Made by a program: the position numbers and the translations under genes. A stretch of 64,000 nucleotides of DNA. Source: Pseudomonadota bacterium. GTDB lineage: Bacteria > Pseudomonadota > Gammaproteobacteria > Steroidobacterales > Steroidobacteraceae. Positions 1 to 13,044 of this stretch are shown here, piece after piece; the first letter of the stretch is position 1, and each line of letters starts with the position of its first letter. Under the pieces are notes generated by a model. It was not told where the DNA came from and made no database searches. It was given only the letters and a program-made list of their open reading frames with translations. The stretch spans positions 1,632 through 65,631 of the forward strand of contig JAJYUL010000016.1 of the NCBI GenBank assembly GCA_021792555.1, read 5' to 3'.

Positions 1-857
1 AAATCCGCCTTAAGATCCGGATGGCGATCATTGTGGAAGGTGTCACCATGCGCGATCTGGCCATCGATGCCCCGAATGGCGAGATTCATCTTCGCCAGAC
101 GCCAAGTCGTGTAATTCGATTCCTGGCCGTAGATGGAGATATCGGATTTGGCTTTGCCGCCGTTGCCGTTCCCACTGGCATGAGCACGGATGAACTCGAC
201 CGACTGGACGAACATGCCTGAGGAGCCGCAGCAGGGGTCATAGACCCGCCCCCGATAGGGCTCGAGCATCTCGACCAGGACTTTGACCACACAGCGGGGC
301 GTATAGAATTCGCCGCCTTTCTTGCCCTCGGCGCTTGCGAACTGGGACAGAAAGTATTCATAGACGCGCCCGAGCACGTCCTTGGCGCGGCTTGCCTCGT
401 CACCGATCTTGATATTGCTGATCAGATCAATCAGCTGGCCGAGACGCGTCTTATCGAGCGCCGGTCGCGCGTAATCCTTGGGTAGAACGCCCTTCAGGGC
501 CGGGTTGTCGCGCTCGATGCCGGTCATGGCTTCATCGACGATCTGCCCAATGGTGCTCTGGCGCGCCTGGGCTTTCAGGTGCGCCCAACGTGCCTCCGGC
601 GGCACCCAGAAGATGGAAACTGCGCGGTATTCGTCTTGGTCCTCAGGATCAGCCCCGCTCGCCTTCTCCGCTTCCAGCCTCGCGTGCTGCTCCTCGAAGG
701 CGTCCGAGATGTACTTGAGGAAAATCAGCCCCAGGACGACGTGCTTGTACTCGGCGGCGTCCATGCTGCCCCGCAGCGCGTCTGCCATCTGCCAGAGCTG
801 TGCCTCGTAGCCGACGTTGGCGGCCGTGTCGCTCTGCTTGCCTTTGGTCCGTGCCAT
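1..857 (-). CDS. hsdM: Type I restriction-modification methyltransferase subunit HsdM, N-terminal ~285 codons (3' end off window)
   Basis: My own translation of the minus strand from the ATG at 857 gives [56 protein letters not shown]...[36 protein letters not shown]. This contains the HsdM N-terminal motif and SAM motif I. It is absent from the ORF track because there is no stop codon in the window. Confidence 0.85.
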
Positions 858-874
858 TCGCCTTATGCTCTCCT

Positions 875-1141
875 CTATCGTCGGTTGACAGGTAACGGGG
901 GACGGAATGCGCGCTCGATCAATTTGGGCGCATCGCCATCGATGATTCCGGGGTGAGAGACGGTATGGGCATGGCGTAGGCGGGCCACACGGCGGTTCGT
1001 TGACGCCAAGCAGATTCTGGTGAGGTCCCCGAGCATGCGCGAGCCCGCCTTGCCTTCCTTTGCCGGGCGCCACCGCGCGAGCGCACCCGGCCTCATTCTT
1101 AGATTCGCGTCAATGCTAGGTCTTTGTGGCTTTTCTTTCAA
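875..1141 (-). CDS. Small hypothetical ORF directly upstream of hsdM; possibly a ~53-aa HTH (excisionase/AlpA-like) protein if it starts at an internal ATG
   Basis: 88-codon ORF with a TTG start, ending 18 nt before the hsdM ATG. The internal segment [44 protein letters not shown] has HTH-like spacing, but I recognise no firm family match. Confidence 0.25.
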
Positions 1142-1279
1142 TTACTTAGCGCGTTCGCACATTTTGTGCGGGATCAGACTGACGCCGCGATGGGAATCAC
1201 TGAAAGCGCGCTCGAAAATACCGCAATGTGCGACGACGGCCGGAAGGGTCCGTGGCCGTGGTCAACCCGCACTTATCCT

Positions 1280-1885
1280 CTATCCAGCCGCGCGAATGTT
1301 CCCGGGCTGTTGATACTTTCTGAACATCCCCACCACTAGCCCGTAGATTTCCAGGTCATCCTTGGGCCGGATGGGCGCGTAAGCCTTATTACCGGGTTTC
1401 AGGAAGAAGCCGCGGCGATCGTGCGCCAGATACTTCACCGTGAACTCGTTGTCCACGATGGCGACCACCACGTCGCCGGGCTTGGCCGGCGCTCCCCTTT
1501 TCACCACGACCGTATCTCCGGGCATCAACCCCGCCTCGATCATGGAGTCACCCTTTACGGTGAGCAGCACTGTCCGGGAAGGCTGATCAACCAGATACGC
1601 ATCGACATTCAGGCCCTCTACCGGCGCGTCGTTCACGGCATGCGGTATTCCTTGGCGCTGGATATCGGAGACTGGCCGCTCGAAGAACCGATCCCCTGGC
1701 TGCAGGCGCCCGCCGGGAGCGGAGTCCAAGAAACCCGCTTCCTTCATCCGTTTGACGAAGGCCGCCACCGCGGATGTCGAGCGAAGACCCAGAAGGGTCG
1801 CCACGGCTGAATACGACGGCAGCACCCTGTGCTCGGCGTAGTAATCACGAAGCTTCGCCAAGTATTCGGGGTCACGATTGAGCAT
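1280..1885 (-). CDS. LexA-like transcriptional repressor, S24 peptidase family
   Basis: 201 aa. N-terminal winged-HTH segment (LPSYSAVATLLGLRSTSAVAAFVKRMKEAGFL). C-terminal S24 domain with catalytic Ser (VKGDSMIEAGL) and Lys (FTVKYL) motifs in LexA-like order. No canonical Ala-Gly cleavage site seen. Confidence 0.8.
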   Translation of the reverse strand: MLNRDPEYLAKLRDYYAEHRVLPSYSAVATLLGLRSTSAVAAFVKRMKEAGFLDSAPGGRLQPGDRFFERPVSDIQRQGIPHAVNDAPVEGLNVDAYLVDQPSRTVLLTVKGDSMIEAGLMPGDTVVVKRGAPAKPGDVVVAIVDNEFTVKYLAHDRRGFFLKPGNKAYAPIRPKDDLEIYGLVVGMFRKYQQPGNIRAAG

Positions 1886-1913
1886 GGCGGACTATATCTA
1901 CTGGCAGTTTATT

Positions 1914-1943
1914 TTTATACCGCTCGCCGAACACACTTGCCAA
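1914..1943 (-). promoter_or_regulatory. Putative sigma70 promoter of the lexA-like gene
   Basis: Minus strand reads TTGGCA (1943-1938), an 18 nt spacer, then TATAAA (1919-1914), about 28 nt upstream of the ATG at 1885. Confidence 0.4.
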
Positions 1944-1957
1944 TCCGTCGATGCTGC

Positions 1958-1986
1958 TTGACAATAGAATGATCATTCGATATTAT
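1958..1986 (+). promoter_or_regulatory. Near-consensus sigma70 promoter of the tns operon with a palindromic operator in the spacer
   Basis: TTGACA (1958-1963), a 17 nt spacer, then TATTAT (1981-1986). A perfect 12-bp palindrome GAATGATCATTC (1967-1978) sits inside the spacer. A second inverted repeat GATATT-N6-AATATC (1979-1996) overlaps the -10. Confidence 0.55.
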
Positions 1987-2017
1987 ATGCAATATCAGAG
2001 CAGTCATTCTTGCTGTG

Positions 2018-2695
2018 ATGGAAGTGTCGGAGCTCATCACAATCGAGTTCCCAGAGGCGATCCGATCACGAAAGGTGGTGACGCGATCGCGGGCACGACC
2101 GACGGGCAAGTTCCCGTCCTGGAAAATGAGTCGGATGCTCCAATGGGAATCCGTCCCCGAGCTCAACGCAATGCGGCTCCTCGACGCGGATCCCTTCGTG
2201 CGTTTCTTTGCCGAGCAACCCCTGACGCTTCGTTACCGACTGAACGGGGAAAGCCGGATTCATTATCCCGACCTGCTGGTGGAGCGCGATAACGATCCGA
2301 AGGAACTCTGGGAAATCAAGTCGGCAAGGGATGCCGCGCGAGACGAGGTCGCCGCAAGAACCGCCCTGCTCTGTGCCGACTTGCCAGCTTATGGGTACGC
2401 ATACCGAGTGGTCTACGCGGAGGAGGTGTGCCGCCAACCGCGCCTCTCGAACGCCCTCGAAATCCTTAAGTGGGGTCGCGGCCCGATTACAGCCGTAGAA
2501 CGTGAGCGGATCCGCGCGATCCTGAATCGATTGCCCGCCGTGACATGGGGCGCCGCGGTGTCCGGCACCCTGGGACGCAACGGCCGTCACTCACTGTGCC
2601 GCCTCGTCCTCGAAGGCATGCTGGCCTTCGACGTCAACCAAAAGCTCGGTCTCGACACCCGATTCACATTATCCCGCATGAGGTTTGCACCATGA
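2018..2695 (+). CDS. tnsA: TnsA-like transposition endonuclease
   Basis: Restriction-endonuclease-like motif ...HYPDLLVERDNDPKELWEIKS (D...E-x-K). Stop overlaps the tnsB ATG (ATGA at 2692). GTG at 2015 is an alternative start. Confidence 0.85.
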   Translation: MEVSELITIEFPEAIRSRKVVTRSRARPTGKFPSWKMSRMLQWESVPELNAMRLLDADPFVRFFAEQPLTLRYRLNGESRIHYPDLLVERDNDPKELWEIKSARDAARDEVAARTALLCADLPAYGYAYRVVYAEEVCRQPRLSNALEILKWGRGPITAVERERIRAILNRLPAVTWGAAVSGTLGRNGRHSLCRLVLEGMLAFDVNQKLGLDTRFTLSRMRFAP

Positions 2696-4719
2696 GTACT
2701 TCGACGTTTTCCGCGGGGACCCTCGTCGAGATCGACGGCCACCGCCATGTACTTTTACGCAAAATCGACGCGGACCTCTGGCAGCTCGAGGAGGTTCGCA
2801 GCAAACGGATCACCGAGCTCGCCGAGCGCGATTTGCAAAGTGCCTACGTGCAGGGAAAACTCGGATTCTGCGAGGATGACCGCGAAGGTTCGCCTTCGGT
2901 ATCGAAACCCCGCCCCCCGGATTATCCCCCAGAGCAATGGGAGCGGGCGAAGATCCGACGTATGTACGTGCATGCAATCCTCGGCCTGCCCGGAACACGT
3001 CGAGCAATCGCGGCTGTCATTCAAACCACGTGGGACAACCTTCGCCAGCCTGATCGCCCACCCGCAGCCTCCACCGTGCTGGAATGGCGATCTGTGTATC
3101 TCAAAGCCGGCAAGGACATTACAGCCCTGATCGAACGCCACGCAGCAAAAGGGAACAAAAAGCCTCGCTATCCAGCAGAGGTTGAACAGTTCGCAAAGGA
3201 TGCGATAGATGCCCGATACATGACGCTACATCGCGGAACCATTCAAGATGTCGTCGATTATGCCGCGGCCAGTGTATGCCGGGAAAACGCCATGCGTCCG
3301 CAGAAAATGCAACTGCCACTTCCCACACGCCGCCTAGTCAAGCGTCTGATCCAGGAGATTCCGGCGTTTGACCGTTATGCGGCCCGTCATGGACGGATCG
3401 CCGCCGTGAAGGTTTTCCGCTCCGTGCAGGCTCATCGTGTAACGGTCGCCCCGCTCGAGCGGGTCGAGATCGACCACACGCTGCTCGATCTGTTCGTGAT
3501 CGATGATCGGACCGGATTACCCCTTGGGCGGCCCTGGCTGACAGTCTGCATAGATGACCACACCCGATGTGTGCTGGGGGTATATGTCGGCTTTGAGCCC
3601 CCGAGCTACCTGACCGTTGCCCGCTGCCTCAAGACAGCGCTGCTTCCCAAGAGCTGGCTTCCCGAGAAATATCCGTCCATCAAGTGTCAGTGGCTGGCGC
3701 ACGGGGTCATGCGCGAACTTGTCGTCGACAACGGTACCGAATTCCACAGCATCAGCCTGGAGAACGCCTGCTTCACCCTGGGCATCGAGATCCACTATGC
3801 CCCCCGTAAGGTTGCCTGGTTCAAGGGCAAGGTCGAGCGATTCATCGGTACAGCCAATCGCGGGGTGGCCCACGGGACGCCGGGAACGACCTTCGCGAAC
3901 ATTTTCGAAAAGGACGACTACGACCCATCGAAGCATGCCATCGTTCGTCAGTCGACTCTGCTGGAGATCGTCCACAAGTGGATCGTGGACGTGTATCACC
4001 AAAAACCACACCGGGCACTTGGTGTACCGCCTGCGCTCATGTGGACCAGGAGCATCGCGACCGAGGACATTCGGCTTCCTACCGATCCTGAGCGACTGGA
4101 TGCCATCCTAGGCCGGAGCGAAACCCGGATGCTCACCCACAAGGGCATCGAGCTCAATGGTCTCCTCTACAACTCCCCTGAGCTGACGGCACTGCGCCGG
4201 CGGCTCGGAGATCGGTTCGAGGTCGAGGTCCGCGTCGACGCCACCGACATCGGCGCAATCATCGTTCTCCCGCCTGATCGGGGGCCGCTGATTCGAGCAC
4301 ACGCCCTGGCTACCGACTACGCGGGCGGCCTTAGCGAATGGCAACACAAGGTGATTCGGCGCTACGCGGCACGGGAAGCAGGCCGCTCCGATCTCCAGGG
4401 CTGGGTCGAGGCGAAGCGGGAGATCGCCGAGCTGATCGACCGAGAGCTCATGCATCGAAAATCGAAGTCCCGGAAACGCATTGCGCGCTATCAGGGCAAC
4501 GGCTCATCCCGTCCTGCCCCGCCGTCACCACCGCGCCCTGATCTCCCCTCGGCCACAGCGGTCGATCCGGGACCCGCTCTGGCGTCGCCAGCGCATCCGG
4601 AGGCAATTCCGGCGGTCGCGCCGACGAAGGACATCTACCCGCTCACGGAGGGTCCTGTCCGCAAGTACACGGCGATTCTCCGCAAACACACAGGCCCAGA
4701 AGCCGAGGCTCAGGAGTAA
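2692..4719 (+). CDS. tnsB: TnsB-like DDE transposase (Mu/rve integrase superfamily)
   Basis: DDE triad context VEIDHTLLDLFVID / LVVDNGTEFHS / FKGKVERF. The start at ATG 2692 (MSTSTFSAGTLVEIDG) is chosen over the ORF-track start at 2545, which overlaps tnsA. Confidence 0.9.
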   Translation: MSTSTFSAGTLVEIDGHRHVLLRKIDADLWQLEEVRSKRITELAERDLQSAYVQGKLGFCEDDREGSPSVSKPRPPDYPPEQWERAKIRRMYVHAILGLPGTRRAIAAVIQTTWDNLRQPDRPPAASTVLEWRSVYLKAGKDITALIERHAAKGNKKPRYPAEVEQFAKDAIDARYMTLHRGTIQDVVDYAAASVCRENAMRPQKMQLPLPTRRLVKRLIQEIPAFDRYAARHGRIAAVKVFRSVQAHRVTVAPLERVEIDHTLLDLFVIDDRTGLPLGRPWLTVCIDDHTRCVLGVYVGFEPPSYLTVARCLKTALLPKSWLPEKYPSIKCQWLAHGVMRELVVDNGTEFHSISLENACFTLGIEIHYAPRKVAWFKGKVERFIGTANRGVAHGTPGTTFANIFEKDDYDPSKHAIVRQSTLLEIVHKWIVDVYHQKPHRALGVPPALMWTRSIATEDIRLPTDPERLDAILGRSETRMLTHKGIELNGLLYNSPELTALRRRLGDRFEVEVRVDATDIGAIIVLPPDRGPLIRAHALATDYAGGLSEWQHKVIRRYAAREAGRSDLQGWVEAKREIAELIDRELMHRKSKSRKRIARYQGNGSSRPAPPSPPRPDLPSATAVDPGPALASPAHPEAIPAVAPTKDIYPLTEGPVRKYTAILRKHTGPEAEAQE

Positions 4720-4723
4720 TCCA

Positions 4724-5734
4724 ATGGCCATGCCGAGAAACCTCATTGATCGGATCCTGGTCCCCCACGCCGCCTTTCAGGGCGCGCTGCGGCGCATCGG
4801 TCAGTGCTACCGGAACGCAGAAGCACGCGGCAATCCGGCCTGCCTGGCCATCGTCGGGCCCTCGCGAACCGGCAAGACCAGCGTCATGGAGCAGTTCGCA
4901 TCGGGACATCCCATGGTGCGCACCGACGAGGGGCTCGAAGTGCCGATTCTACGGGTGAAGACGCCATCCAAGCCCACCGTCAAATCAATGGCGGAGATCA
5001 TGCTCCGGGAGATGGGCGATCCGCGATTCGACAAGGGGACAGAAAACGCACGCACCGGGCGGCTCATGACGCTGATGCGCAACTGCGGAACCCGCATGGC
5101 CATGATCGATGAGTTCCAGCACTTTTACGACAAAGGCCAGAACAGGGTCATGCACCACGCCGCCGACTGGCTGAAGGTTCTCGTCGATGACACGGGGATC
5201 GGGCTCGTAGTGGCCGGCATTCCCGGTTGCCTCGCGACTATCGAGCAGAACGAACAGCTGCGGGGGCGGTTCCGCACGCCTGTAACCTTCGAGCGGTTCG
5301 ACTGGAGAAGTCCCGAAGACCGCGAAGAGTTTGCCGCTATCCTGAGTGCGTTTTACGATGCGCTCGCTGAGCACGTCGACCTCCCGGACTTCACATCGGC
5401 GGAGATGGCGTTCAGGCTGTACTGCGCGACGGGCGGGCTGATCGGGTATCTCGCCATGCTGCTCAGCCAGGTGGTCTGGGACGCCATTGATGACAAACGG
5501 AAGGCGGTCACCCTCAAGCATCTTCGCGAGGCCTTCGCGCACTCCGTGCGCAGCAGCCACGACTATGGCGATGCTCCGGATCCATTCGGTCCTCGCTTCG
5601 CCACCGAGCCGTCGGAGGAACTGCTCGCCAAAGTGTCTCGGATTGGCGCTGCCGCGCCGGCGGTGAGCGAGGGCCGTCCGTCCCGCCGCAAGGTGTGGCA
5701 TGCGCACGCTCGAGATGTGCTCTCCGCCGCGTGA
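4724..5734 (+). CDS. tnsC: TnsC/TniB-like AAA+ ATPase transposition regulator
   Basis: Walker A IVGPSRTGKTS and Walker B MAMIDEFQH. Starts 4 nt after the tnsB stop. Confidence 0.85.
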   Translation: MAMPRNLIDRILVPHAAFQGALRRIGQCYRNAEARGNPACLAIVGPSRTGKTSVMEQFASGHPMVRTDEGLEVPILRVKTPSKPTVKSMAEIMLREMGDPRFDKGTENARTGRLMTLMRNCGTRMAMIDEFQHFYDKGQNRVMHHAADWLKVLVDDTGIGLVVAGIPGCLATIEQNEQLRGRFRTPVTFERFDWRSPEDREEFAAILSAFYDALAEHVDLPDFTSAEMAFRLYCATGGLIGYLAMLLSQVVWDAIDDKRKAVTLKHLREAFAHSVRSSHDYGDAPDPFGPRFATEPSEELLAKVSRIGAAAPAVSEGRPSRRKVWHAHARDVLSAA

Positions 5735-5743
5735 GCCAGCGCG

Positions 5744-8143
5744 ATGCGCTTGCTGTGCCGCACGCCGCGACCGCACGAGACGGAAAGTCTGTTCGGCTTC
5801 GTCCTGCGCGTGAGTGAGGCCAACGGATACGACACCCCGCGTCACATTTGGAAGGCCGCCGACCTGCCTCGCGGTTCCGACCTCGCTCCCCGGTTCCCCA
5901 CCGAACCGCTTGCCGCCCTCCTGGGACTGAGGAGCGATGCATTACATCCGCTTGCTTACCGCGCCGACCTGAAGAGCCGCGGATCGTTCAAGATCCTGGG
6001 TCAATCCCTCGGAGATGATTTGCGCAGCGAGCCGCTACGGCTGAAGCATCCGGCTTTTTGCCCGCGATGTGTCTCCGAGACGGGATACATCGACGCGTTT
6101 TGGGATCTCTCCGCCGCCGTGGCGTGCCCGATTCATGGATCGACGGTTCTCACCACGTGTCCGGCATGCGGGCATCGGATCGGATGGGAGCGGTCGGGTC
6201 TGCTCACCTGCGGCTGTGGTGGCTCGCTCCGGGACGCGCAGACGCAACGAGCGTCTCCGCCGGTCCTTGACCTCATGACGCTGCTCCAGGCAAGGCTCCA
6301 CGGCACGCACGGCGAGATTGAAAATCCGCGCGGCCTGCCCCACGAGCACTTGGTCTCGATGCCGTTTGGGGCACTGCTCCATCTGATCGCCGTGCTCGGC
6401 GACATCGCGGCCTCGGAGAAGGACAGAGAAGCTCGCCTCCTGCATGCGCCCACTGCACAGCGCTCGTTAGCCACAGCAGCGATGCAGCCACCAAAGTCGT
6501 CCGCTCCGGGGCGTCTGACTGCGCAGATCGCAGCGGCTGTCCAGATCCTGAGCAACTGGCCGCACGGATATCACGACTTTCTACGCACGCTCGGAGAGCG
6601 CGCTCTTGCTTCTGGCTGGAAGACCGTGAGCATGCGCGTACAGTTCGCCGGCATCTACGAGACGCTCTTCGAGAACCGGCCCGCGACGCGCGAGCATTTC
6701 GCGTTCTTGAAGGAGGAATTCATTGCCTTTGGCCTTAGGCACTGGGGCAAGGGCATCATCGATCCGCGGATGCTGCGCGACAAGACCGCGCTGAAGAATG
6801 CGCGGTTCGTGTCGAGATCGGAGCTCGCAAGGCGGCATCGACTCTGGGCGCCAACAGTGCGCAAGATGACCGCGTCAGGGGCACTGGCTGGCATCACGGT
6901 CCCCGTGAAAGGTATCGAGCGCGCGGTCGTCGATGCCGAGAACACGCCCATCCCCGCGCCGATCACAAAGATACTCAATGTCAGGCAAGCCGCGAGGCGG
7001 CTGGGGCTCACTGTTCGCGTGCTGAAGCGCCTCAGGGAGCAGGGAATCTACGATGCAGCCGAGCGGCGTGGATATGCGCACTCGTGGTTCGCGGACGAAG
7101 CAGCAACGTTCCGAGCCCGGCTGCTCGCTCTCGCGCCGGTCTCGTCGGGTCGCAACCGGCCGGGCACCGTCACGCTGAATGAAGTGGTGCGCAGGAGCAC
7201 GCTACCAGTTGAGACGCGTGTTGCGGTGGTGGTTGCGCTTCTGAACCATGCTCTGAAACCCGTGTGTCGGTCCGGCCCGAGTCCCGCCAGCATCCTGCTG
7301 AAGAAGCAGGACGTCGACACATTCATCGACAGCAACCTGAGACCGCTCCTCGGTTCGACCTGCTCCTTCAAGGAGTGCGCCCAGAGGACCGGTCTGTGCT
7401 CGTCCGCAATTGCGGGGGCGGTCAGAGCCGGTCATCTCGTGCAGACGGTAGTGAGGGGCAACAAACGGATCACCGTCGCATCGGTAGAACGATTCCGGAC
7501 CGCGTACCTTCCGCTGGCAGAAGTCGCACGGAAGAAACGTCGGTCGCCGCGCCTGCTGGCCAGGCTGATCCGCAAGAAGCGCCTATCTGTCATGTTCATC
7601 GATCGGGCGAACCACGCCAGTCCACAAGGATTCATCCGCCGCTCGCACGTCTCGACATTGATGGCTGCAGTCGCCGAATATGTCGCTGACCAGGCTGCGC
7701 ATCGTCCGCGGGTCAATAGCCTGGCGGAGCACGAAGATCGGCTACGCGCTTTCTGCGCGCGGAGGATCGAAGGCGGACAAGGTCTGCCGCGCAGGGGCGG
7801 CGTTCCGATCAAGCGGGTCATTGCGTCGGCATGCGGCTTCACCCGTGACCTGTTCTACGACCAGCCCCGTATTCAGCGCGTGCTCGACGAATTTGACCGC
7901 AAGGAGCGCAACATGCATAGGGAACGATGCTTGAGGCCTGCGGAAGTCGTAGCGGACTATCTGGCGAGATTAAAACAGGCGGGATCACCGCTGCCGTGCT
8001 GGCAGGGCCGACCGAACGTTCTTCGGATTGCCGAGGCGTGTGGGATTCGGCGGCATGCGATTCAGGGGGATGCCAAGATCGCGAAGATGCTGAACGAGTT
8101 CATGCGCCGAAGTGATTTCCGTAAGGCAACGCCCCGGCGCTGA
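5744..8143 (+). CDS. tnsD: TniQ/TnsD-like target-selection protein (799 aa)
   Basis: N-terminal TniQ-type region (PRPHETESLFGFVLRVSEANGY). Cys/His cluster CPRCVSETG...CPIHG...CPACGHRIG...CGCG. Several C-terminal HTH-like segments (VRQAARRLGLTVRVLKRLREQGIY; FKECAQRTGLCSSAIAGAVRAGHL; LRIAEACGIRRHAIQ). Confidence 0.8.
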   Translation: MRLLCRTPRPHETESLFGFVLRVSEANGYDTPRHIWKAADLPRGSDLAPRFPTEPLAALLGLRSDALHPLAYRADLKSRGSFKILGQSLGDDLRSEPLRLKHPAFCPRCVSETGYIDAFWDLSAAVACPIHGSTVLTTCPACGHRIGWERSGLLTCGCGGSLRDAQTQRASPPVLDLMTLLQARLHGTHGEIENPRGLPHEHLVSMPFGALLHLIAVLGDIAASEKDREARLLHAPTAQRSLATAAMQPPKSSAPGRLTAQIAAAVQILSNWPHGYHDFLRTLGERALASGWKTVSMRVQFAGIYETLFENRPATREHFAFLKEEFIAFGLRHWGKGIIDPRMLRDKTALKNARFVSRSELARRHRLWAPTVRKMTASGALAGITVPVKGIERAVVDAENTPIPAPITKILNVRQAARRLGLTVRVLKRLREQGIYDAAERRGYAHSWFADEAATFRARLLALAPVSSGRNRPGTVTLNEVVRRSTLPVETRVAVVVALLNHALKPVCRSGPSPASILLKKQDVDTFIDSNLRPLLGSTCSFKECAQRTGLCSSAIAGAVRAGHLVQTVVRGNKRITVASVERFRTAYLPLAEVARKKRRSPRLLARLIRKKRLSVMFIDRANHASPQGFIRRSHVSTLMAAVAEYVADQAAHRPRVNSLAEHEDRLRAFCARRIEGGQGLPRRGGVPIKRVIASACGFTRDLFYDQPRIQRVLDEFDRKERNMHRERCLRPAEVVADYLARLKQAGSPLPCWQGRPNVLRIAEACGIRRHAIQGDAKIAKMLNEFMRRSDFRKATPRR

Positions 8144-8195
8144 AGCCGGGTTGCGCGCGGCGCCCTGACTCAATACCGAACTTTCCAAAGGAAAT

Positions 8196-8217
8196 GCGGC
8201 GAGGATCTCCTCGCCGC
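8196..8217. terminator. Perfect 10-bp-stem GC hairpin between tnsD and the transposon end
   Basis: GCGGCGAGGA-TC-TCCTCGCCGC. No clear U-tract on the plus strand; a weak T-rich run (ATTTCCTTT) follows on the minus strand. Confidence 0.3.
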
Positions 8218-8240
8218 GAATTCACAATCGACCCAGATTG

Positions 8241-8321
8241 GTCCAGCTTTATGAGGTCCGCAGTCCGGCCTTATGGGGTCCAAGTCCAGCTTTTTGAGTC
8301 AACCCACATCATCTGCCCACA
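8241..8321 (+). repeat. Transposon terminal region: three tandem candidate TnsB-binding repeats plus the TGT/ACA terminus
   Basis: GTCCAGCTTTATGAGGTCCGCA (8241-8262), GTCCGGCCTTATGGGGTCCAA (8263-8283), GTCCAGCTTTTTGAGTCAA (8284-8302), then CCCACATCATCTGCCCACA (8303-8321). CCCACA occurs twice, so the exact end could be 8308 or 8321. Confidence 0.6.
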
Positions 8322-8337
8322 ACCAGCCACCAATGCC

Positions 8338-9108
8338 TCAGCCGCACTTCGAATCACCGCAGTTCAGACACGTCATGCACCCGTCCATCATCACGACGGC
8401 GGCGGTGCTGCATTTGGCGCAGAGCTGCGCGCCTTCCGGAAAATCGGACTTGGCAAACGCATCGGTCTGTCGGGCACGGGCCTCGTATTCGGCGCGCTTT
8501 TCATCCACCAGCTTCTGTTGATGCTCGTCGAGCTGCGGCTTGCGCAGCAGTCCGATCGTCTGCAGGTGCCGCTCGATGACGTAGCCGAGTTCGGCAATGA
8601 TCGACGGCATGAACTTCCCGCCCGGCTGCCAGTAGCCGCCGCGCGGATCGAACACGGCCTTGAGCTCATCGACCAGGAAGGTGACGTCGCCGCCCTTGCG
8701 GAACACCGCGGAGATGATGCGGGTCAGCGCGACGATCCACTGGAAATGATCGAGGTTCTTCGAGTTGATGAAGATCTCGAACGGTCGGCGCTGCTCGTAC
8801 TCGGTGCCTTCGTTGAGCACGATGTCGTTGATGGTCACGTACATGGCGTGATCGGAGATCGGCGTCTTGATCTTGTAGGTCGAGCCGATCAGCACCTCCG
8901 GGCGCTCAAGCTTCTCGTGCATCCGGATCACTTGAGCCATATGGCCGTTCTTGTCGCGCACCGTGGTGGTGGTGGGAATGGGCGGCAGATTCGTCGGTGC
9001 CGGCGAACTGGCCGCCTGCGCCACCGCGGCCTTCTCGGCCTGGATTTCCTCAGGCTTCTGCACCTGGTATTTGACGATTTTTCTCTCGATCTTGATGGTC
9101 ATGGTCAT
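8338..9108 (-). CDS. nrdJ: Class II (adenosylcobalamin-dependent) ribonucleotide reductase, small C-terminal polypeptide NrdJb
   Basis: 256 aa. C-terminal Cys cluster CAKCSTAAVVMMDGCMTCLNCGDSKCG. Lies directly downstream of nrdJa, as in the split Pseudomonas-type NrdJa/NrdJb. Confidence 0.85.
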   Translation of the reverse strand: MTMTIKIERKIVKYQVQKPEEIQAEKAAVAQAASSPAPTNLPPIPTTTTVRDKNGHMAQVIRMHEKLERPEVLIGSTYKIKTPISDHAMYVTINDIVLNEGTEYEQRRPFEIFINSKNLDHFQWIVALTRIISAVFRKGGDVTFLVDELKAVFDPRGGYWQPGGKFMPSIIAELGYVIERHLQTIGLLRKPQLDEHQQKLVDEKRAEYEARARQTDAFAKSDFPEGAQLCAKCSTAAVVMMDGCMTCLNCGDSKCG

Positions 9109-9136
9109 CGTCCGGTATGCGCGGGGCTCCTCCGGC

Positions 9137-12100
9137 TCAATACTTGCCGAAATAGCCTTCCTTCAGGCTATCGAAGAGATTGGCGGCCGAATGCAGCTCG
9201 CCCTCGTACTCGATCTCCTCGTCGCCGCGCGCCTCGACGACGGTCCCGTCATCGAGCGTGAATTTGTACACCGTGTTCTTCAGGTCCTGCTCCTTGACCA
9301 GCACGCCCTGGAAGGCCTCCGGGTTGAAGCGGAAGGTCGTGCAGCCCTTCAGGCCCTGCTCGTGGGCGTACAGGTAGATGTCCTTGAACTTCTCGTACGG
9401 GAAGTCCGTCGGCACGTTGGCCGTCTTCGAGATTGAGGAGTCGACCCAGCGCTGGGCAGCCGCCTGCACGTCGACATGCTCCTTCGGCGTGATGTCCTCG
9501 GAGGCGATGAAATAATCCGGCAGCTTCTCGGACTCGGCGGCCGCACCGGGCGTGGCGTGCGGATTGACGAGCTCGCGGTACGCCAGCAGCTCGAAGGAAT
9601 AAACGCCGATCTTCTCCTTGGTCTTGCGCCCCGGCCGGATCACGTTGCGGAAGTAGTGGTGCGCGAACGATGGCTCGATGCCGTTCGAAGCATTGTTGGC
9701 GAGCGAGAGCGAAATGGTTCCGGTCGGCGCGATCGACGTGTGGTGCGTATAGCGTGCGCCCGTTTCGGCCAGTTCCTCGACGAGACGGGGCGCGATCTGC
9801 GCGATCCGCTGCATGTAGCGGCTGTACTTGGCGTGCAGGACGCGTCCCGGCACCTGATCGCCGACCTTCCAGCCGTCGCGGATCATCTCGGGACGCTTGC
9901 GCAGCATGGCGCCCGTCACCGTGAACAGCTCGGTCATGATGGGCGCGGGGCCTTTTTCGCGCGACAGATCGAGCGCCTCCTCCCAGCCGGCGACCGCCAT
10001 TTCGCGCGCGACGTCCTCGGTGAACTTCACCGATTCGGGCGAACCGTACTTGATGCCGAGCAGCGCCAGGGTGCTGCCGAGGCCGAGGAACCCCATGCCG
10101 TGGCGTCGCTTGCGCATGATTTCGTCGCGCTGCCGCTCGAGCGGCAGGCCATTGATCTCGACCACATTGTCGAGCATGCGGGCGAAGACCTTGACGACCT
10201 GGCGGTACTCCTCCCAGTCGAAGCGCGCATGATCCGTGAACGGGTCGCGCACGAATCGCGTCAGATTGACAGAACCCAACAGGCAGCTTCCATACGGTGG
10301 AAGCGGCTGTTCGCCGCACGGATTGGTGGCGCGGATGTTCTCACACCACCAGTTGTTGTTCATCTCATTGACGCGGTCGATGAGAATGAACCCAGGCTCG
10401 GCGAAATCGTAGGTCGACGTCATGATGACGTCCCACATGCGCCGTGCCGGCAGTGTCTTATAGATCTTGCACGCGACCAGCCCGTCCTCGTTGAGGACGT
10501 ACTGGTCGTGCACGGGCCACTCGCGCCAGATGAACTTGGCAGTGTCGTTCAGATCGGGCTTGTCGGCCTCGTATTCCTTGCGCGACAGCGGAAACGCGAG
10601 CTTCCATTCGCCGTTTTGCCGAACCGCCTGCATGAACTCATCGGTGATCAGCAACGACAGATTGAACTGCCGCAGCCGGCCGGCCTCGCGCTTGGCCTTG
10701 ACGAACTCCATGGCATCGGGATGGCCGACGTCGAACGTGCCCATCTGCGCGCCGCGGCGGCCGCCGGCCGAGGAGACGGTGAAACACATCTTGTCGAAGA
10801 TGTCCATGAACGACAGCGGGCCTGAGGTGTAGGCACCCGCGCCCGAGACGTACGCGCCGCGCGGGCGGAGCGTCGAGAACTCGTAGCCGATACCGCAGTT
10901 GTGGATGACCGCGAGCCCGCGGTTACCGGCCAGGTAGTTGTTGTGCCCATCGACCGTGAAGTCGAAGAACGTCTCCGGCAGCGGCAACGCCCGCTCGATT
11001 CGCTCGACCGGCCGCAGGCTCATCGCGAAGCGAATGAGATCGGCGAGCTGCGGGAAGTGTGCAAGCCACTTGTCCAGCCAGACTCGGCTGACGCGGTCGC
11101 GGCGGTGGTGCCCGTGATAGAAACCCAGGCGCCGGCGCTCTTGATCCGACAGCGCGGCGTTTGCGGATTCGAGCGCCTGACGCAGCGCATCGGGCATCGC
11201 GTAGCGGTCATGCTGGCCGGGCGTGGACGCGCAGCGCGCAATGCGCTGGCGCTTGCCCGCATCGGCCATGAACTGCGCGACGCGGCCCAGGAACTGCGAG
11301 TCGGAGATCTTGAGGACTGCGCCGCGGCCTGCCGCTGCGGGGAGGCCGCTTAGAATATGCGCGCGCCTGTCGCAGAGCGTAACCGCGCCGTGAACGCCGA
11401 ATAGGCCGAGGAGCGCCTGAAGCTCGCGCGCAAATGTCTCGCTCTTCGTCGAAATGGACACGCTGCCGCGCTCGGTCGAGACCGTCCCGTCGGTGTCGAT
11501 CAATCCGGCCAGGAACGGCAGGAAGAAGCGCTCCGGTTCCGCCGCCACCCATGCCGGCACGCGCAGCGGCGCGGATCTCCCGCCAGTCTGCCCATCGATG
11601 AGATCGACCGCGCTTGCATCGAAGCGGTCCGCCGTGAGGTCCCACACCGGAGTGCCGTTTGCGGTCCTCGCGGACACCACTTGCGCCCGGCTGTCGGCAA
11701 AGGCGGCAAAGAACGCTGCGTAACGCTCCGCGACCTCGCGCGCGGCTGCGCGAATCTTGAACACGATCCGGCGTCCGGATGCACCGGCCTTGCCATGCCA
11801 TCTCAGGCGCGCGGGCTTGTCCGGGTGTTCCTCTTCGCATGCGCTGCCGTCGCCGAGATGCGCCCCGGCGAACCATGCCTCGAGCGCGCGCTCCGTCTCA
11901 CCCGCCCATTCGTAGCGGTGGTGTACGAGCGCATCCGACTCCCTCACCTCATCGGCCCGCACGTAAACCAGCCGCTCTTCGCGGAACACCAGCACCGGGT
12001 GGCGAATCGAAGTCGTCAGCGAGAGGCCGTTTGACCAGATGCGGATGTTCTCGTGCTGCGGCACATGCGTGGTCATGTGCCGCAGGATCCTGCGCATCTC

Positions 12101-12601
12101 GAAGCGACGCGTCTCGCGATCGTAACTAAGAATGCACTCGTGCTTCTCCTGCACCGCCTGATCGGCGGTAACCAGGCCGCGCTCGGTGCGCACCCAGGTG
12201 CCAGGCGCCACGCACCCGGCCTTCAGCGTCAGGCCTGCCTCGTGGACCTTGCCCAGGATGTTGTCCATCGAGTCCTCGATGGTGCCCGAGACGGTGCAGT
12301 TGATCGTCGAGGTAGCCGGCTTGTGCTCAAGCGCTCCGGCGTTGGAGGTGACGCGGCCGGCCGGAATGGCGCCGCGGCGCAGCGCCCAGAGGAATCGCTC
12401 GTACCAGTGCTCGCGCAGCTCTTCCCGCTCGACGTCCGCCAGCGCGCGCGCAACACGCTTGTACGTGTCGTCCATCGTCTTGTCGATGGGCGTGCCGTCT
12501 TTGGCGGTCAGCCGGTACTTCTTGTCCCAGATGTCGATGGACGCTTCCTGGAACGGAATGGCGTCTACATCCTTTGATTCGATCTTCACGACGGTATTCA
12601 T
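9137..12601 (-). CDS. nrdJ: Class II ribonucleotide reductase large polypeptide NrdJa, intein-containing precursor
   Basis: Start MNTVVKIESKDVDAIPFQEASIDIWDKKY at 12601. Conserved RNR blocks NPCGEQPLPPYGSCLLGSVNL and TSIAPTGTISL. 1154 codons including a 439-codon insert. Confidence 0.9.
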   Translation of the reverse strand: MNTVVKIESKDVDAIPFQEASIDIWDKKYRLTAKDGTPIDKTMDDTYKRVARALADVEREELREHWYERFLWALRRGAIPAGRVTSNAGALEHKPATSTINCTVSGTIEDSMDNILGKVHEAGLTLKAGCVAPGTWVRTERGLVTADQAVQEKHECILSYDRETRRFEMRRILRHMTTHVPQHENIRIWSNGLSLTTSIRHPVLVFREERLVYVRADEVRESDALVHHRYEWAGETERALEAWFAGAHLGDGSACEEEHPDKPARLRWHGKAGASGRRIVFKIRAAAREVAERYAAFFAAFADSRAQVVSARTANGTPVWDLTADRFDASAVDLIDGQTGGRSAPLRVPAWVAAEPERFFLPFLAGLIDTDGTVSTERGSVSISTKSETFARELQALLGLFGVHGAVTLCDRRAHILSGLPAAAGRGAVLKISDSQFLGRVAQFMADAGKRQRIARCASTPGQHDRYAMPDALRQALESANAALSDQERRRLGFYHGHHRRDRVSRVWLDKWLAHFPQLADLIRFAMSLRPVERIERALPLPETFFDFTVDGHNNYLAGNRGLAVIHNCGIGYEFSTLRPRGAYVSGAGAYTSGPLSFMDIFDKMCFTVSSAGGRRGAQMGTFDVGHPDAMEFVKAKREAGRLRQFNLSLLITDEFMQAVRQNGEWKLAFPLSRKEYEADKPDLNDTAKFIWREWPVHDQYVLNEDGLVACKIYKTLPARRMWDVIMTSTYDFAEPGFILIDRVNEMNNNWWCENIRATNPCGEQPLPPYGSCLLGSVNLTRFVRDPFTDHARFDWEEYRQVVKVFARMLDNVVEINGLPLERQRDEIMRKRRHGMGFLGLGSTLALLGIKYGSPESVKFTEDVAREMAVAGWEEALDLSREKGPAPIMTELFTVTGAMLRKRPEMIRDGWKVGDQVPGRVLHAKYSRYMQRIAQIAPRLVEELAETGARYTHHTSIAPTGTISLSLANNASNGIEPSFAHHYFRNVIRPGRKTKEKIGVYSFELLAYRELVNPHATPGAAAESEKLPDYFIASEDITPKEHVDVQAAAQRWVDSSISKTANVPTDFPYEKFKDIYLYAHEQGLKGCTTFRFNPEAFQGVLVKEQDLKNTVYKFTLDDGTVVEARGDEEIEYEGELHSAANLFDSLKEGYFGKY
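10898..12214 (-). mobile_element. Intein with LAGLIDADG homing-endonuclease domain inside nrdJa
   Basis: Junctions GLTLKAG|CVAPGTWV... and ...LAVIHN|CGIGYEFSTLRP. Block B TTSIRHP. Two LAGLIDADG-type motifs, WFAGAHLGDGSA and FLAGLIDTDGTV. Block F/G FFDFTVDGHNNYLAG...VIHN followed by a +1 Cys. Confidence 0.85.
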
Positions 12602-12762
12602 GTGTCCGCGGCGCCCCAAGTGTCTGCACACCGGATCACAGGAGATACGGGCGGCGCGGAACGCGCGGGGCTGCGCGCACCGGATCCGCCGGTACGCCGA
12701 TCCACAGCCTGTATCCCCCTGAGCCTCCCCGAACGCGCGATCTCGCAGCCCCCCGAAGGCGG

Positions 12763-12778
12763 ACACAAGATCTTGTGT
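12763..12778. promoter_or_regulatory. Candidate NrdR box
   Basis: Perfect 16-bp palindrome ACACAAGATCTTGTGT (ACAC-N8-GTGT, as in the NrdR-box consensus), 10 nt downstream of the putative -10. A degenerate partner ACGCGCGATCTCGCAG lies at 12733-12748, about 30 bp centre to centre. Confidence 0.5.
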
Positions 12779-12788
12779 CGGGGTAAAG

Positions 12789-12817
12789 AGCCTAATGAGC
12801 ACCCGCCTTGACGTCAA
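12789..12817 (-). promoter_or_regulatory. Putative sigma70 promoter of nrdJab
   Basis: Minus strand reads TTGACG (12817-12812), a 17 nt spacer, then TAGGCT (12794-12789). Confidence 0.4.
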
Positions 12818-13044
12818 GATTCCATTCGGCCGCAAAGGCGTCGCTCTAAGCCTTCAAAAACAAAGGGTTATGATGAAACCCGCCAATTCGATGCCAGGAA
12901 TTTTTTGCGGAAAGCCGAAAGCAGCACCGCGGTATAACCCCAAGATATTGTATCCCCCGGAATCGCACAGGTTGTGCACACCCTGTCCCCCGAGCCCGCA
13001 GGACGCGCGAATGCTCGGGCCGCAACGGCACGACCCCCGCGCGG

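Follow-up and report, generated by a model that had tools for sequence, protein, structure and literature searches.

A gene for a LexA-type repressor lies divergent from tnsA in a Tn7-like transposon of a Steroidobacteraceae bacterium, and the promoter that faces tnsA holds in its spacer a perfect 12-bp palindrome (predicted operator O1) of a type that recurs in the promoters of the repressor's relatives. The locus was analyzed within a 64-kb stretch of contig JAJYUL010000016.1 (assembly GCA_021792555.1), here called the window, and coordinates are those of the window unless another locus is named (Table 1). On balance, we consider it probable from the sequence that the protein is a constitutive LexA-type repressor of the tns genes, responding poorly or not at all to RecA*, and that it is a core gene of a clade of Tn7-like elements targeting nrdJb. 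The role as repressor of the tns promoter is the firmer part of this proposal and appears highly likely; given that role, we lean towards a protein that is not SOS-inducible. A preliminary description of the window had proposed that transposase expression is gated by a self-cleaving repressor, which could be RecA/SOS- or stress-responsive. The gating is supported by the presence of O1 in the tnsA promoter, by a geometry that is the same in seven of seven related intergenic regions and by a motif of the family type, while the responsive self-cleavage has become doubtful, with the scissile Ala-Gly lost and the surrounding loop hypervariable (37% identity).

The repressor protein

On the evidence of profiles, alignments and a structural model, the 201-residue product of the gene is a LexA-family repressor that joins a LexA-type winged helix-turn-helix (HTH) to an S24 domain. 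A Pfam scan recognizes Peptidase_S24 (E = 2e-23), and a profile built from 30 family members matches residues 3-189 to residues 6-197 of E. coli LexA (1JHF, E = 1.7e-18), to which the protein is 29% identical. Ser114 and Lys151 align with Ser119 and Lys156 of LexA, so that the Ser-Lys dyad of the S24 family is present. In the AlphaFold2 model (mean predicted local distance difference test score, pLDDT, of 76) the N-terminal domain is made up of helices at residues 5-19, 25-32 and 37-49 and a two-stranded wing (53-55 and 61-63), followed by a disordered linker and a beta-rich C-terminal domain. The top Foldseek matches to this model are full-length LexA structures (3K2Z, 3JSO and 1JHH), and the putative recognition helix of the winged HTH is RSTSAVAAFVKRMK. 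The Pfam model LexA_DNA_bind reaches 18.7 bits, under its cut-off of 23.7, though the LexA profile and the model both identify the domain as a LexA-type winged HTH. Against TIGR00498, the NCBIfam LexA equivalog, the protein scores 93.6 bits (cut-off 110.95) and thus falls outside the equivalog. The architecture read earlier from the letters, a winged HTH plus an S24 domain with its Ser in GDSM and its Lys in VKYL, is therefore upheld by Pfam, the LexA profile, Foldseek and alignment. For the repressor, 3230 homologues are detectable. On sequenced plasmids no close relative was seen, the best match being 39.6% identical.

Promoter and operators in the intergenic region

The repressor gene and tnsA are separated by 129 bp if tnsA starts at the GTG at 2015, and by 132 bp with the ATG at 2018 used in public gene calls. 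The divergent transcription across 129 bp that had been described holds with that one adjustment. This spacer is AT-rich, with a guanine-plus-cytosine (GC) content of 42%; the element is at about 60% GC, and host DNA rises to about 70% beyond 13 kb. The near-consensus promoter facing tnsA, TTGACA and TATTAT at a spacing of 17 nucleotides, was also correctly seen: it matches the sigma-70 consensus at 11 of 12 positions and is the best promoter-like site found by a consensus scan of 1100-2800. The palindrome reported inside its spacer is there as well, at 1967-1978, and has kept its placement in related elements. Taken alone and set against shuffled sequence it is only suggestive, a perfect 12-bp palindrome turning up in 3.3% of shuffled versions of the 129-bp stretch. 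It is the comparative evidence, beyond this shuffle result, that makes the operator convincing. The 64-kb window contains the exact motif GAATGNNCATTC a single time, within the tnsA promoter, and a chromosomal SOS regulon is not apparent there.

A second predicted operator, O2, lies 31 bp from O1 and would cover the first nucleotides of a transcript predicted to start near 1993. When the 12-mers of the seven distinct tnsA-linked intergenic regions were scored against a degenerate operator consensus, the one at O1+31 ranked first to third among 111-144 positions in all seven. Since 31 bp corresponds to three helical turns, two dimers bound at O1 and O2 would share one face of the DNA. A TCATTC half-site had been noted as recurring in this region; it is real and forms the right half of the conserved O2, but its position is 2004-2009, not 2005-2010. 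A second inverted repeat that had been placed over the -10, GATATT at 1979-1984 with AATATC at 1991-1996 (GATATT-N6-AATATC), is likewise present in the sequence but is not conserved in relatives. It was dropped as a second operator and is probably incidental AT-rich sequence of the -10 region.

Two further candidates were set aside. Control by Dam through the central GATC of O1 was dropped, that GATC not being conserved: the centre of O1 in relatives is GAAC, GCTC or GAAT instead. The intergenic repeats were also considered as TnsB sites marking a transposon end, as in Tn7R, and were rejected because the end-repeat motif is confined to 8241-8298. No long inverted repeat pairs 1886-2014 with other sequence in the window, and an Rfam search of 1-13000 for structured RNA gave no match.

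On the other strand, a block 5' of the lexA-like gene is kept among tnsA-linked elements, reading GGCGAGCGGTATAAAAATAAA and, further on, CTATAGT(C/T)CG directly before the ATG. We infer that this block (1891-1928) would act as the promoter of the repressor gene. It could serve a leaderless or short-leader mRNA by analogy with the chromosomal relatives, in which the -10 stands about 7 nucleotides from the ATG. No operator overlaps the block in the window, and no evidence of autoregulation of the repressor in this element was seen in its sequence.

Conservation of the repressor beside tnsA

Linkage was followed in TnsA relatives at least 73% identical and with readable context (the window and its identical public contig L001, L178, L190-193, L094, L083, L177 and L174), and geometry in the seven distinct tnsA-linked intergenic regions, where TnsA is 73-100% identical. 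An S24 gene stands divergent from tnsA in every element of the linkage set. The same repressor is thus present in all readable relatives at this level, a point that the preliminary description had left to a survey. Beyond the repressor the cargo varies, being a type I restriction-modification system in one of two arrangements, genes of unknown function with cpYpsA, or a toxin-antitoxin pair. The fixed position divergent from tnsA while the cargo changes, together with the position of the transposon end that was found, argues that the repressor belongs to the transposon and not to DNA that flanks it; the alternative that its gene is part of a separate cargo module is not borne out.

The promoter geometry is equally constant. 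All seven intergenic regions present TTGnnn, 3 nucleotides, a 12-bp operator, 2 nucleotides and TAnnnT facing tnsA, ending 25-37 nucleotides before the start codon. The left half-site of O1, GAATG, is invariant (7/7), and the right half is variable, reading CATTC, CACTC, CGCTC or TGTTC.

Further from this group the repressor is not seen. Among 80 tnsA loci from JGI metagenomes it occurs in one close relative only (L094), and TnsA relatives at 46-59% identity lack it. Several distant tnsABCQ elements (49-52% TnsA identity) carry other small divergent genes 5' of tnsA, with matches to MerR_1 (L126) or DUF6471 (L106); L142 has a weak PadR/MarR-like match in this place, and L157 resembles L142 by eye. 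This list comes from a crude pick of the nearest open reading frame in GC-rich flanks and is illustrative, not a census. It suggests that the regulator slot 5' of tnsA is filled by different families.

Origin of the repressor and its operator

Searched against a genome collection at species level, the repressor comes closest to chromosomal genes from Betaproteobacteria (Gallionella, Sideroxydans, Sulfuricella, Methylobacillus, Thiobacillaceae, Usitatibacter and others), with 45-61% identity over the full length. None of the 80 homologues from this collection adjoins tns genes. About 30 of the chromosomal homologues have a family box, GAACGnnCGTTC (GAACGwwCGTTC), in the promoter of their own gene, where it separates the -35 from the -10 in the layout TTGACA-n3-GAACGwwCGTTC-n2-TAnnnT, often with a second copy 23-24 bp on and with the ATG a few bases past the -10. 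O1 (GAATGATCATTC) is a symmetric variant of this box in the same place in its promoter. A non-canonical LexA of Betaproteobacteria, of the Sideroxydans/Gallionella type, reportedly recognizes a GAAC-N4-GTTC box, and we take the chromosomal relatives of the repressor to be this non-canonical LexA clade. At 45-61% identity to its members, the repressor itself is placed in the same clade.

In several chromosomal homologues, umuD-umuC or an exonuclease gene comes after the lexA gene. At L003, L005, L022, L025-L027, L030 and L021 the non-canonical lexA is directly followed by a second S24 gene, and L021 (9986-12352 of that locus), the sole locus at which the third gene was checked, reads lexA-umuD-umuC, its third gene encoding an impB/umuC-family polymerase. 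The lexA-umuD-umuC context supports an SOS role of the ancestral family.

Across the family, the half-site changes together with the recognition helix: RSKSS goes with GAACG, KSKNA with GTACG, and RSTSA, found in the clade of the window, with GAATG. This co-variation argues that each protein reads the palindrome that adjoins it, and is the strongest in-silico argument for the proposed pairing. The cassette of promoter and operator points towards lexA itself in the chromosomal genes and towards tnsA in the Tn7-like clade. The cassette appears to derive from the autoregulated promoter of the non-canonical lexA genes of Betaproteobacteria.

Homologues that are 65-73% identical occur in other mobile contexts, beside IS1595 (L091 and L180-L186), Tn3 (L187/L188) and kfrA (L086-L090). 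In the IS1595 context, the lexA-like gene is divergent from the transposase gene, and the cassette of L091, TTGCAT-ATA-GAACAATCACTC-GA-TATAAT, faces the transposase. In the Tn3 context, the gene stands just 3' of the transposase gene, and the cassette of L187 faces the lexA-like gene and the co-directional DUF5131 and GMT-wHTH genes. In the third, it follows kfrA in an element that bears an integrase. Closely 3' of the lexA-like gene in these contexts are DUF5131 and GMT-wHTH genes, or genes for a methylase, a helicase and a TIR protein. Repressor and promoter-operator look like a portable module common to unrelated transposons.

The cleavage site

The preliminary description had found no obvious canonical Ala-Gly cleavage site, and alignment bears this out: the dipeptide in the scissile position is Gln78-Gly79, neither Ala-Gly nor Cys-Gly. 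All S24 autoproteases characterized so far cleave at Ala-Gly or Cys-Gly. In LexA, the non-inducible (Ind-) mutations lie at Ala84 and Gly85, two residues that saturation mutagenesis reportedly found intolerant to substitution.

Cleavage loops were compared among the 120 best homologues and the tnsA-linked proteins, which were split into 103 sister sequences and 22 sequences of the window clade. The sister group has the scissile Ala in 100% and the Gly in 99% of its sequences (Ala-Gly in 102 of 103), with a mean loop identity of 66%. In the window clade, the scissile Ala is kept in 27% and the Gly in 73%, and the dipeptides that replace Ala-Gly are QG, PG, HG, EG, DG, VG, AA, EE, DS, TP and LE. 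Pairwise identity in its loop is 37%, as against 86% in the N-terminal domain and 78% in the S24 core. The catalytic Ser is kept in all members of the clade, and the Lys is replaced by Arg in three of them (P0003, P0004 and P0043) and in one sister sequence (P0077). Ala-Gly is present in the natural relatives P0007 and P0015. One locus, L189, also keeps it, and the DNA of this locus aligns collinearly, at 84-85% identity, with that of tnsA-linked elements in which the dipeptide is Ala-Ala, which argues that Ala-Gly was lost recently and more than once. Because the scissile Ala-Gly has decayed to Gln-Gly, efficient RecA*-stimulated cleavage of the window protein is judged unlikely.

The transposon, its end and its insertion site

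Genes for a TnsA-like endonuclease, a DDE transposase (TnsB), a TnsC/TniB ATPase and a TniQ/TnsD protein follow one another in the window (Table 1), and since they overlap or are tightly spaced they are taken as a single operon, the gene set expected of a Tn7-like element. Beyond a likely terminator hairpin 3' of tniQ lies one end of the transposon, with three direct repeats and a terminal sequence at 8308 that reads TGTGGG from outside. The end repeats are confined to this end (8241-8308) in both the window and L001. Five relatives (L174, L177, L178, L190 and L191) have the same end layout; similarity between the elements stops directly after CCCACA and returns in what is, in each, the coding 3' end of a TSCPD (nrdJb) gene. 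In the window, 29 bp separate the nrdJb stop codon from the end of the transposon at 8308. Since the five relatives have inserted at the corresponding position, about 30 bp 3' of the gene, nrdJb is read as the attachment-site gene of this lineage. The attachment genes of Tn7-family elements named in the literature found include nrdB and nrdD; nrdJ is not among them.

The tns operon is transcribed towards the end next to nrdJb, and its promoter is therefore internal, between core genes and cargo, with the lexA-like gene on the cargo side. A second element end was found neither in the window nor in the extra 10 kb of cargo on L001. The repressor gene is 424 bp from the first cargo gene, hsdM; on L001 and L002 the cargo comprises hsdM (HsdM_N, N6_Mtase), then hsdS, a DUF3644 gene and hsdR. 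An operator-like 12-mer, GAATGCGCGCTC, stands at 905-916, about 50 bp 5' of the hsdM start; sites of the same quality number 14 in the 64 kb, and it does not stand out statistically.

Adjoining nrdJb, nrdJa (9137-12835) encodes the large part of the class II ribonucleotide reductase and, by the Pfam matches to the public gene call, carries an intein bearing a LAGLIDADG homing-endonuclease domain. In 1-kb windows, GC content is about 58-65% in most of the first 13 kb, with 68% at 11-12 kb, and about 65-76% in the remainder. The stretch of lower GC, 1-13000, spans the transposon and also the nrdJab genes.

Table 1. Features of the repressor-tns locus and its flanks, in window coordinates
Feature	Position	Strand	Basis
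hsdM, first cargo gene, type I restriction-modification methylase; runs off window start	1-855	-	Gene calls on L001/L002
lexA-like repressor gene, 201 aa, winged HTH + S24	1280-1885	-	Open reading frame; Pfam; LexA profile; AlphaFold2/Foldseek
S24 peptidase/dimerisation domain, aa 79-185	1331-1651	-	Pfam, LexA profile, alignments
Lys151 in VKYL	1433-1435	-	
Ser114 in GDSM	1544-1546	-	
Degenerate scissile site Gln78-Gly79, aligned with LexA Ala84-Gly85	1649-1654	-	Alignments
N-terminal LexA-type winged HTH, aa 1-65	1691-1885	-	AlphaFold2 model; helix/operator co-variation
Conserved block 5' of lexA-like gene; candidate minus-strand -10s TATAGT (1896-1891) and TATAAA (1919-1914)	1891-1928	-	Conserved in related intergenic regions
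tns operon promoter: -35 TTGACA 1958-1963, 17-nt spacer, -10 TATTAT 1981-1986	1958-1986	+	Promoter scan
Operator O1 (predicted), perfect 12-bp palindrome GAATGATCATTC, fills promoter spacer	1967-1978	.	Unique exact site, conserved position
Operator O2 (predicted) GAGCAGTCATTC, 31 bp from O1; about +5 to +16 of predicted transcript, shortly 5' of tnsA start	1998-2009	.	Conserved spacing
tnsA-like endonuclease gene (alternative GTG start 2015)	2018-2695	+	Pfam Tn7_TnsA-like_N 1.8e-7; NCBIfam TnsA_like_Actin; gene calls
tnsB-like gene	2692-4719	+	Pfam Mu-transpos_C/rve
tniB/tnsC-like gene	4724-5734	+	Pfam TniB/AAA_22
tniQ/tnsD-like gene, 799 aa	5744-8143	+	Pfam TniQ
GC-rich hairpin 3' of tniQ, GCGGCGAGG...CCTCGCCGC, likely operon terminator	8196-8217	+	Sequence; conserved in relatives
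Transposon end: three direct repeats, core GTCCRGCYTTWTGRG (starts 8241, 8263, 8284), terminal CAACCCACA 8300-8308, reverse complement TGTGGGTTG	8241-8308	+	
Flanking target gene nrdJb (TSCPD subunit, split class II ribonucleotide reductase), outside element	8338-9108	-	Pfam TSCPD; same flank in relatives

Proposed mechanism and alternative explanations

From the architecture of the protein, the anatomy and conservation of promoter and operators, the linkage to tnsA and the decay of the cleavage site, we infer that the protein would bind DNA and repress, would escape cleavage and would give rise to zygotic induction. A repressor dimer would sit on O1, which fills the spacer of the tnsA-facing promoter, the sole strong one before tnsA, and a second dimer on O2, three helical turns downstream, would cover the start of the transcript. 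With both sites occupied, RNA polymerase would be shut out and none of the tnsABCQ operon would be transcribed. The repressor, expressed from a promoter of its own, would probably not be inactivated by the SOS signal. Upon entry into a repressor-free cell, the tns genes would be expressed briefly and then silenced once repressor had accumulated.

Several points weigh against this proposal of a constitutive tns repressor. The element was recovered with one of its two ends, and the placement of the lexA-like gene inside it draws on conserved linkage and on the position of that end. With Ser114, Lys151 and the S24 core conserved and Gly79 kept, the protein may retain some self-cleavage, at Gln-Gly or elsewhere, and the AlphaFold2 model, with pLDDT below 50 for residues 71-97, is uninformative on the cleavage loop. 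The repressor's own promoter is only guessed, and no operator overlaps it in the window. In the IS1595, Tn3 and KfrA contexts, the same family heads co-directional cargo operons, which makes an added cargo role possible, and the weak operator-like site at 905-916 may leave room for control of cargo by the repressor.

The alternative in which cleavage is retained, SOS-inducible transposition, would have RecA*-stimulated self-cleavage at Gln78-Gly79 or elsewhere in the linker derepress tnsABCQ. We consider it unlikely. The conserved dyad and S24 core, the retained Gly79 and the canonical Ala-Gly of ancestors and sister clade in SOS contexts are all in keeping with it, and L189, a probable member of the Tn7-linked lineage, keeps Ala-Gly, so that inducibility may persist in some elements. 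Yet tnsA-linked members have Gln, Pro, His, Glu, Asp or Val at P1, or Ala at P1'; the loop varies more than any other part of the repressor, and three clade members have exchanged the Lys for Arg. The Ala-Gly and Cys-Gly sites of the characterized S24 autoproteases and the Ind- mutations at Ala84 and Gly85 point the same way. A broader reading, possible though on the doubtful side, takes the LexA-type repressor with its promoter and operator as a portable cassette, derived from an SOS repressor and captured by unrelated transposons, where it would gate transposase, cargo or both; the Tn7-like lineage would then either be losing RecA-inducible cleavage or be cleaving at Gln-Gly.

It is improbable, in our judgement, that the lexA-like gene serves the defence or restriction-modification module, with its proximity to tnsA incidental and the cassette autoregulatory or functionless. 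Homologues at 65-73% identity do head co-directional operons beside IS1595 or Tn3 transposases (gaps of 17-100 bp), the cassette in the Tn3 context faces the lexA-like gene itself, and the weak operator-like site stands before hsdM. However, the intergenic region and its geometry stay conserved while cargo changes, the -35 and -10 point towards tnsA in all seven regions, a 424-bp gap precedes hsdM, the site before hsdM is not significant, given the 14 sites of equal quality, and the IS1595 cassette of L091 is likewise directed at the transposase gene. Very improbable is a reading of the operator by a host factor, be it host LexA, another palindrome-binding regulator or Dam at the central GATC as in IS10 and IS50. 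O1 of the window does have this GATC, and boxes read by host LexA are known on mobile elements, for example at integron integrase promoters, but the GATC is not conserved in relatives. The host is a high-GC gammaproteobacterium, and its canonical LexA box, CTGT-N8-ACAG, differs from O1, an operator whose type fits the element's own protein family and co-varies with its recognition helix. That chance alone put the palindrome and the promoter into an AT-rich intergenic region, where they would have no regulatory role, is hardly credible: shuffling does produce such a palindrome in 3.3% of cases, but position, spacing and motif are conserved in seven diverged elements, the second site stands at a fixed 31 bp, and about 30 chromosomal homologues share the same -35/operator/-10 architecture.

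Comparison with known systems

The nearest known counterparts are the non-canonical LexA proteins of Betaproteobacteria, which share the domain architecture and the 12-bp GAAC-N4-GTTC-type palindrome between -35 and -10, often with a second copy. Those proteins are chromosomal, autoregulating SOS repressors, are found with umuDC or exonuclease genes and keep Ala-Gly, whereas the window protein is transposon-borne, has a GAATG half-site and a cassette turned to tnsA, and has lost the scissile bond. With canonical E. coli LexA (1JHF and 3JSO) it has in common the winged HTH and S24 fold, the Ser-Lys dyad and, by prediction, dimeric repression from a palindromic operator that overlaps the promoter. 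It differs in its box, in the lack of Ala-Gly and, as a transposon core gene, in the lack of a chromosomal SOS regulon. Among the repressors of prophages and ICEs, lambda CI and SetR of SXT also have a C-terminal S24 domain, are encoded by mobile elements and control genes for mobility. Unlike the window protein, with its LexA-type N-terminal domain and degenerate cleavage site, they have Xre-type HTH N-terminal domains and a working Ala-Gly site at which RecA* triggers cleavage.

Tn7 itself has its tnsAB promoter inside Tn7R, where it is autoregulated by TnsB; the tnsA start adjoins the right end, and the attachment gene is glmS. The element in the window resembles Tn7 in its TnsA/TnsB heteromeric transposase, TnsC-like ATPase and TniQ/TnsD selector, in insertion 3' of a conserved gene, and in its terminal TGT and end repeats. 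In contrast to Tn7, the tns operon here runs towards the end next to the attachment gene, which is nrdJb, not glmS, and the promoter is internal, far from the end repeats, and has a dedicated repressor (predicted).

Repressor control of the kind proposed had been described as foreign to the Tn7 family as far as known. This stands for the LexA/S24 family, since text searches of the literature turned up no Tn7-like element reported to have a LexA/S24 regulator, but not for repressors in general. Among the Tn7-like CRISPR-associated transposons (CASTs), type I-F3 elements encode the Xre-family repressors RtaC and RtbC beside their transposition genes, and type V-K elements the MerR-type CvkR. The Xre regulators of type I-F3 CASTs produce zygotic induction, in which the machinery is off and a burst occurs upon entry into a new host. 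The repressor of the window would be like these in being encoded by the element beside the tns genes and in having its sites (here the predicted O1 and O2) in their promoter. Since RtaC, RtbC and CvkR belong to protein families unrelated to LexA/S24, and their elements are CASTs, the analogy is functional only.

Implications

Element-encoded repressors of Tn7-like transposition genes are thus already known, and what is new here is the recruitment of one from the LexA family. Tn7-like elements are genome-engineering tools and carriers of defence and resistance cargo, and how they are naturally switched on is known for a few CRISPR-associated lineages. The locus offers a small, testable circuit in which a single repressor would act through two operators, 31 bp apart, on one promoter. 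Its repressor and GAATG-type operator are expected to show no cross-talk with the CTGT-N8-ACAG LexA systems of common hosts, and the pair could serve as a compact synthetic control part. In relatives that are 77-97% identical, the scissile position is occupied by Ala-Gly, Gln-Gly, Pro-Gly, His-Gly, Glu-Gly, Asp-Gly or Ala-Ala, a natural series that could show how S24 autoproteolysis is lost as a damage sensor becomes a plain repressor. If the cassette was captured and cleavage lost repeatedly, a damage sensor would be turning into a constitutive transposition repressor; if Gln-Gly is cleaved, this would be the first SOS-inducible Tn7-like transposon and would reveal a new cleavage specificity of the S24 family.

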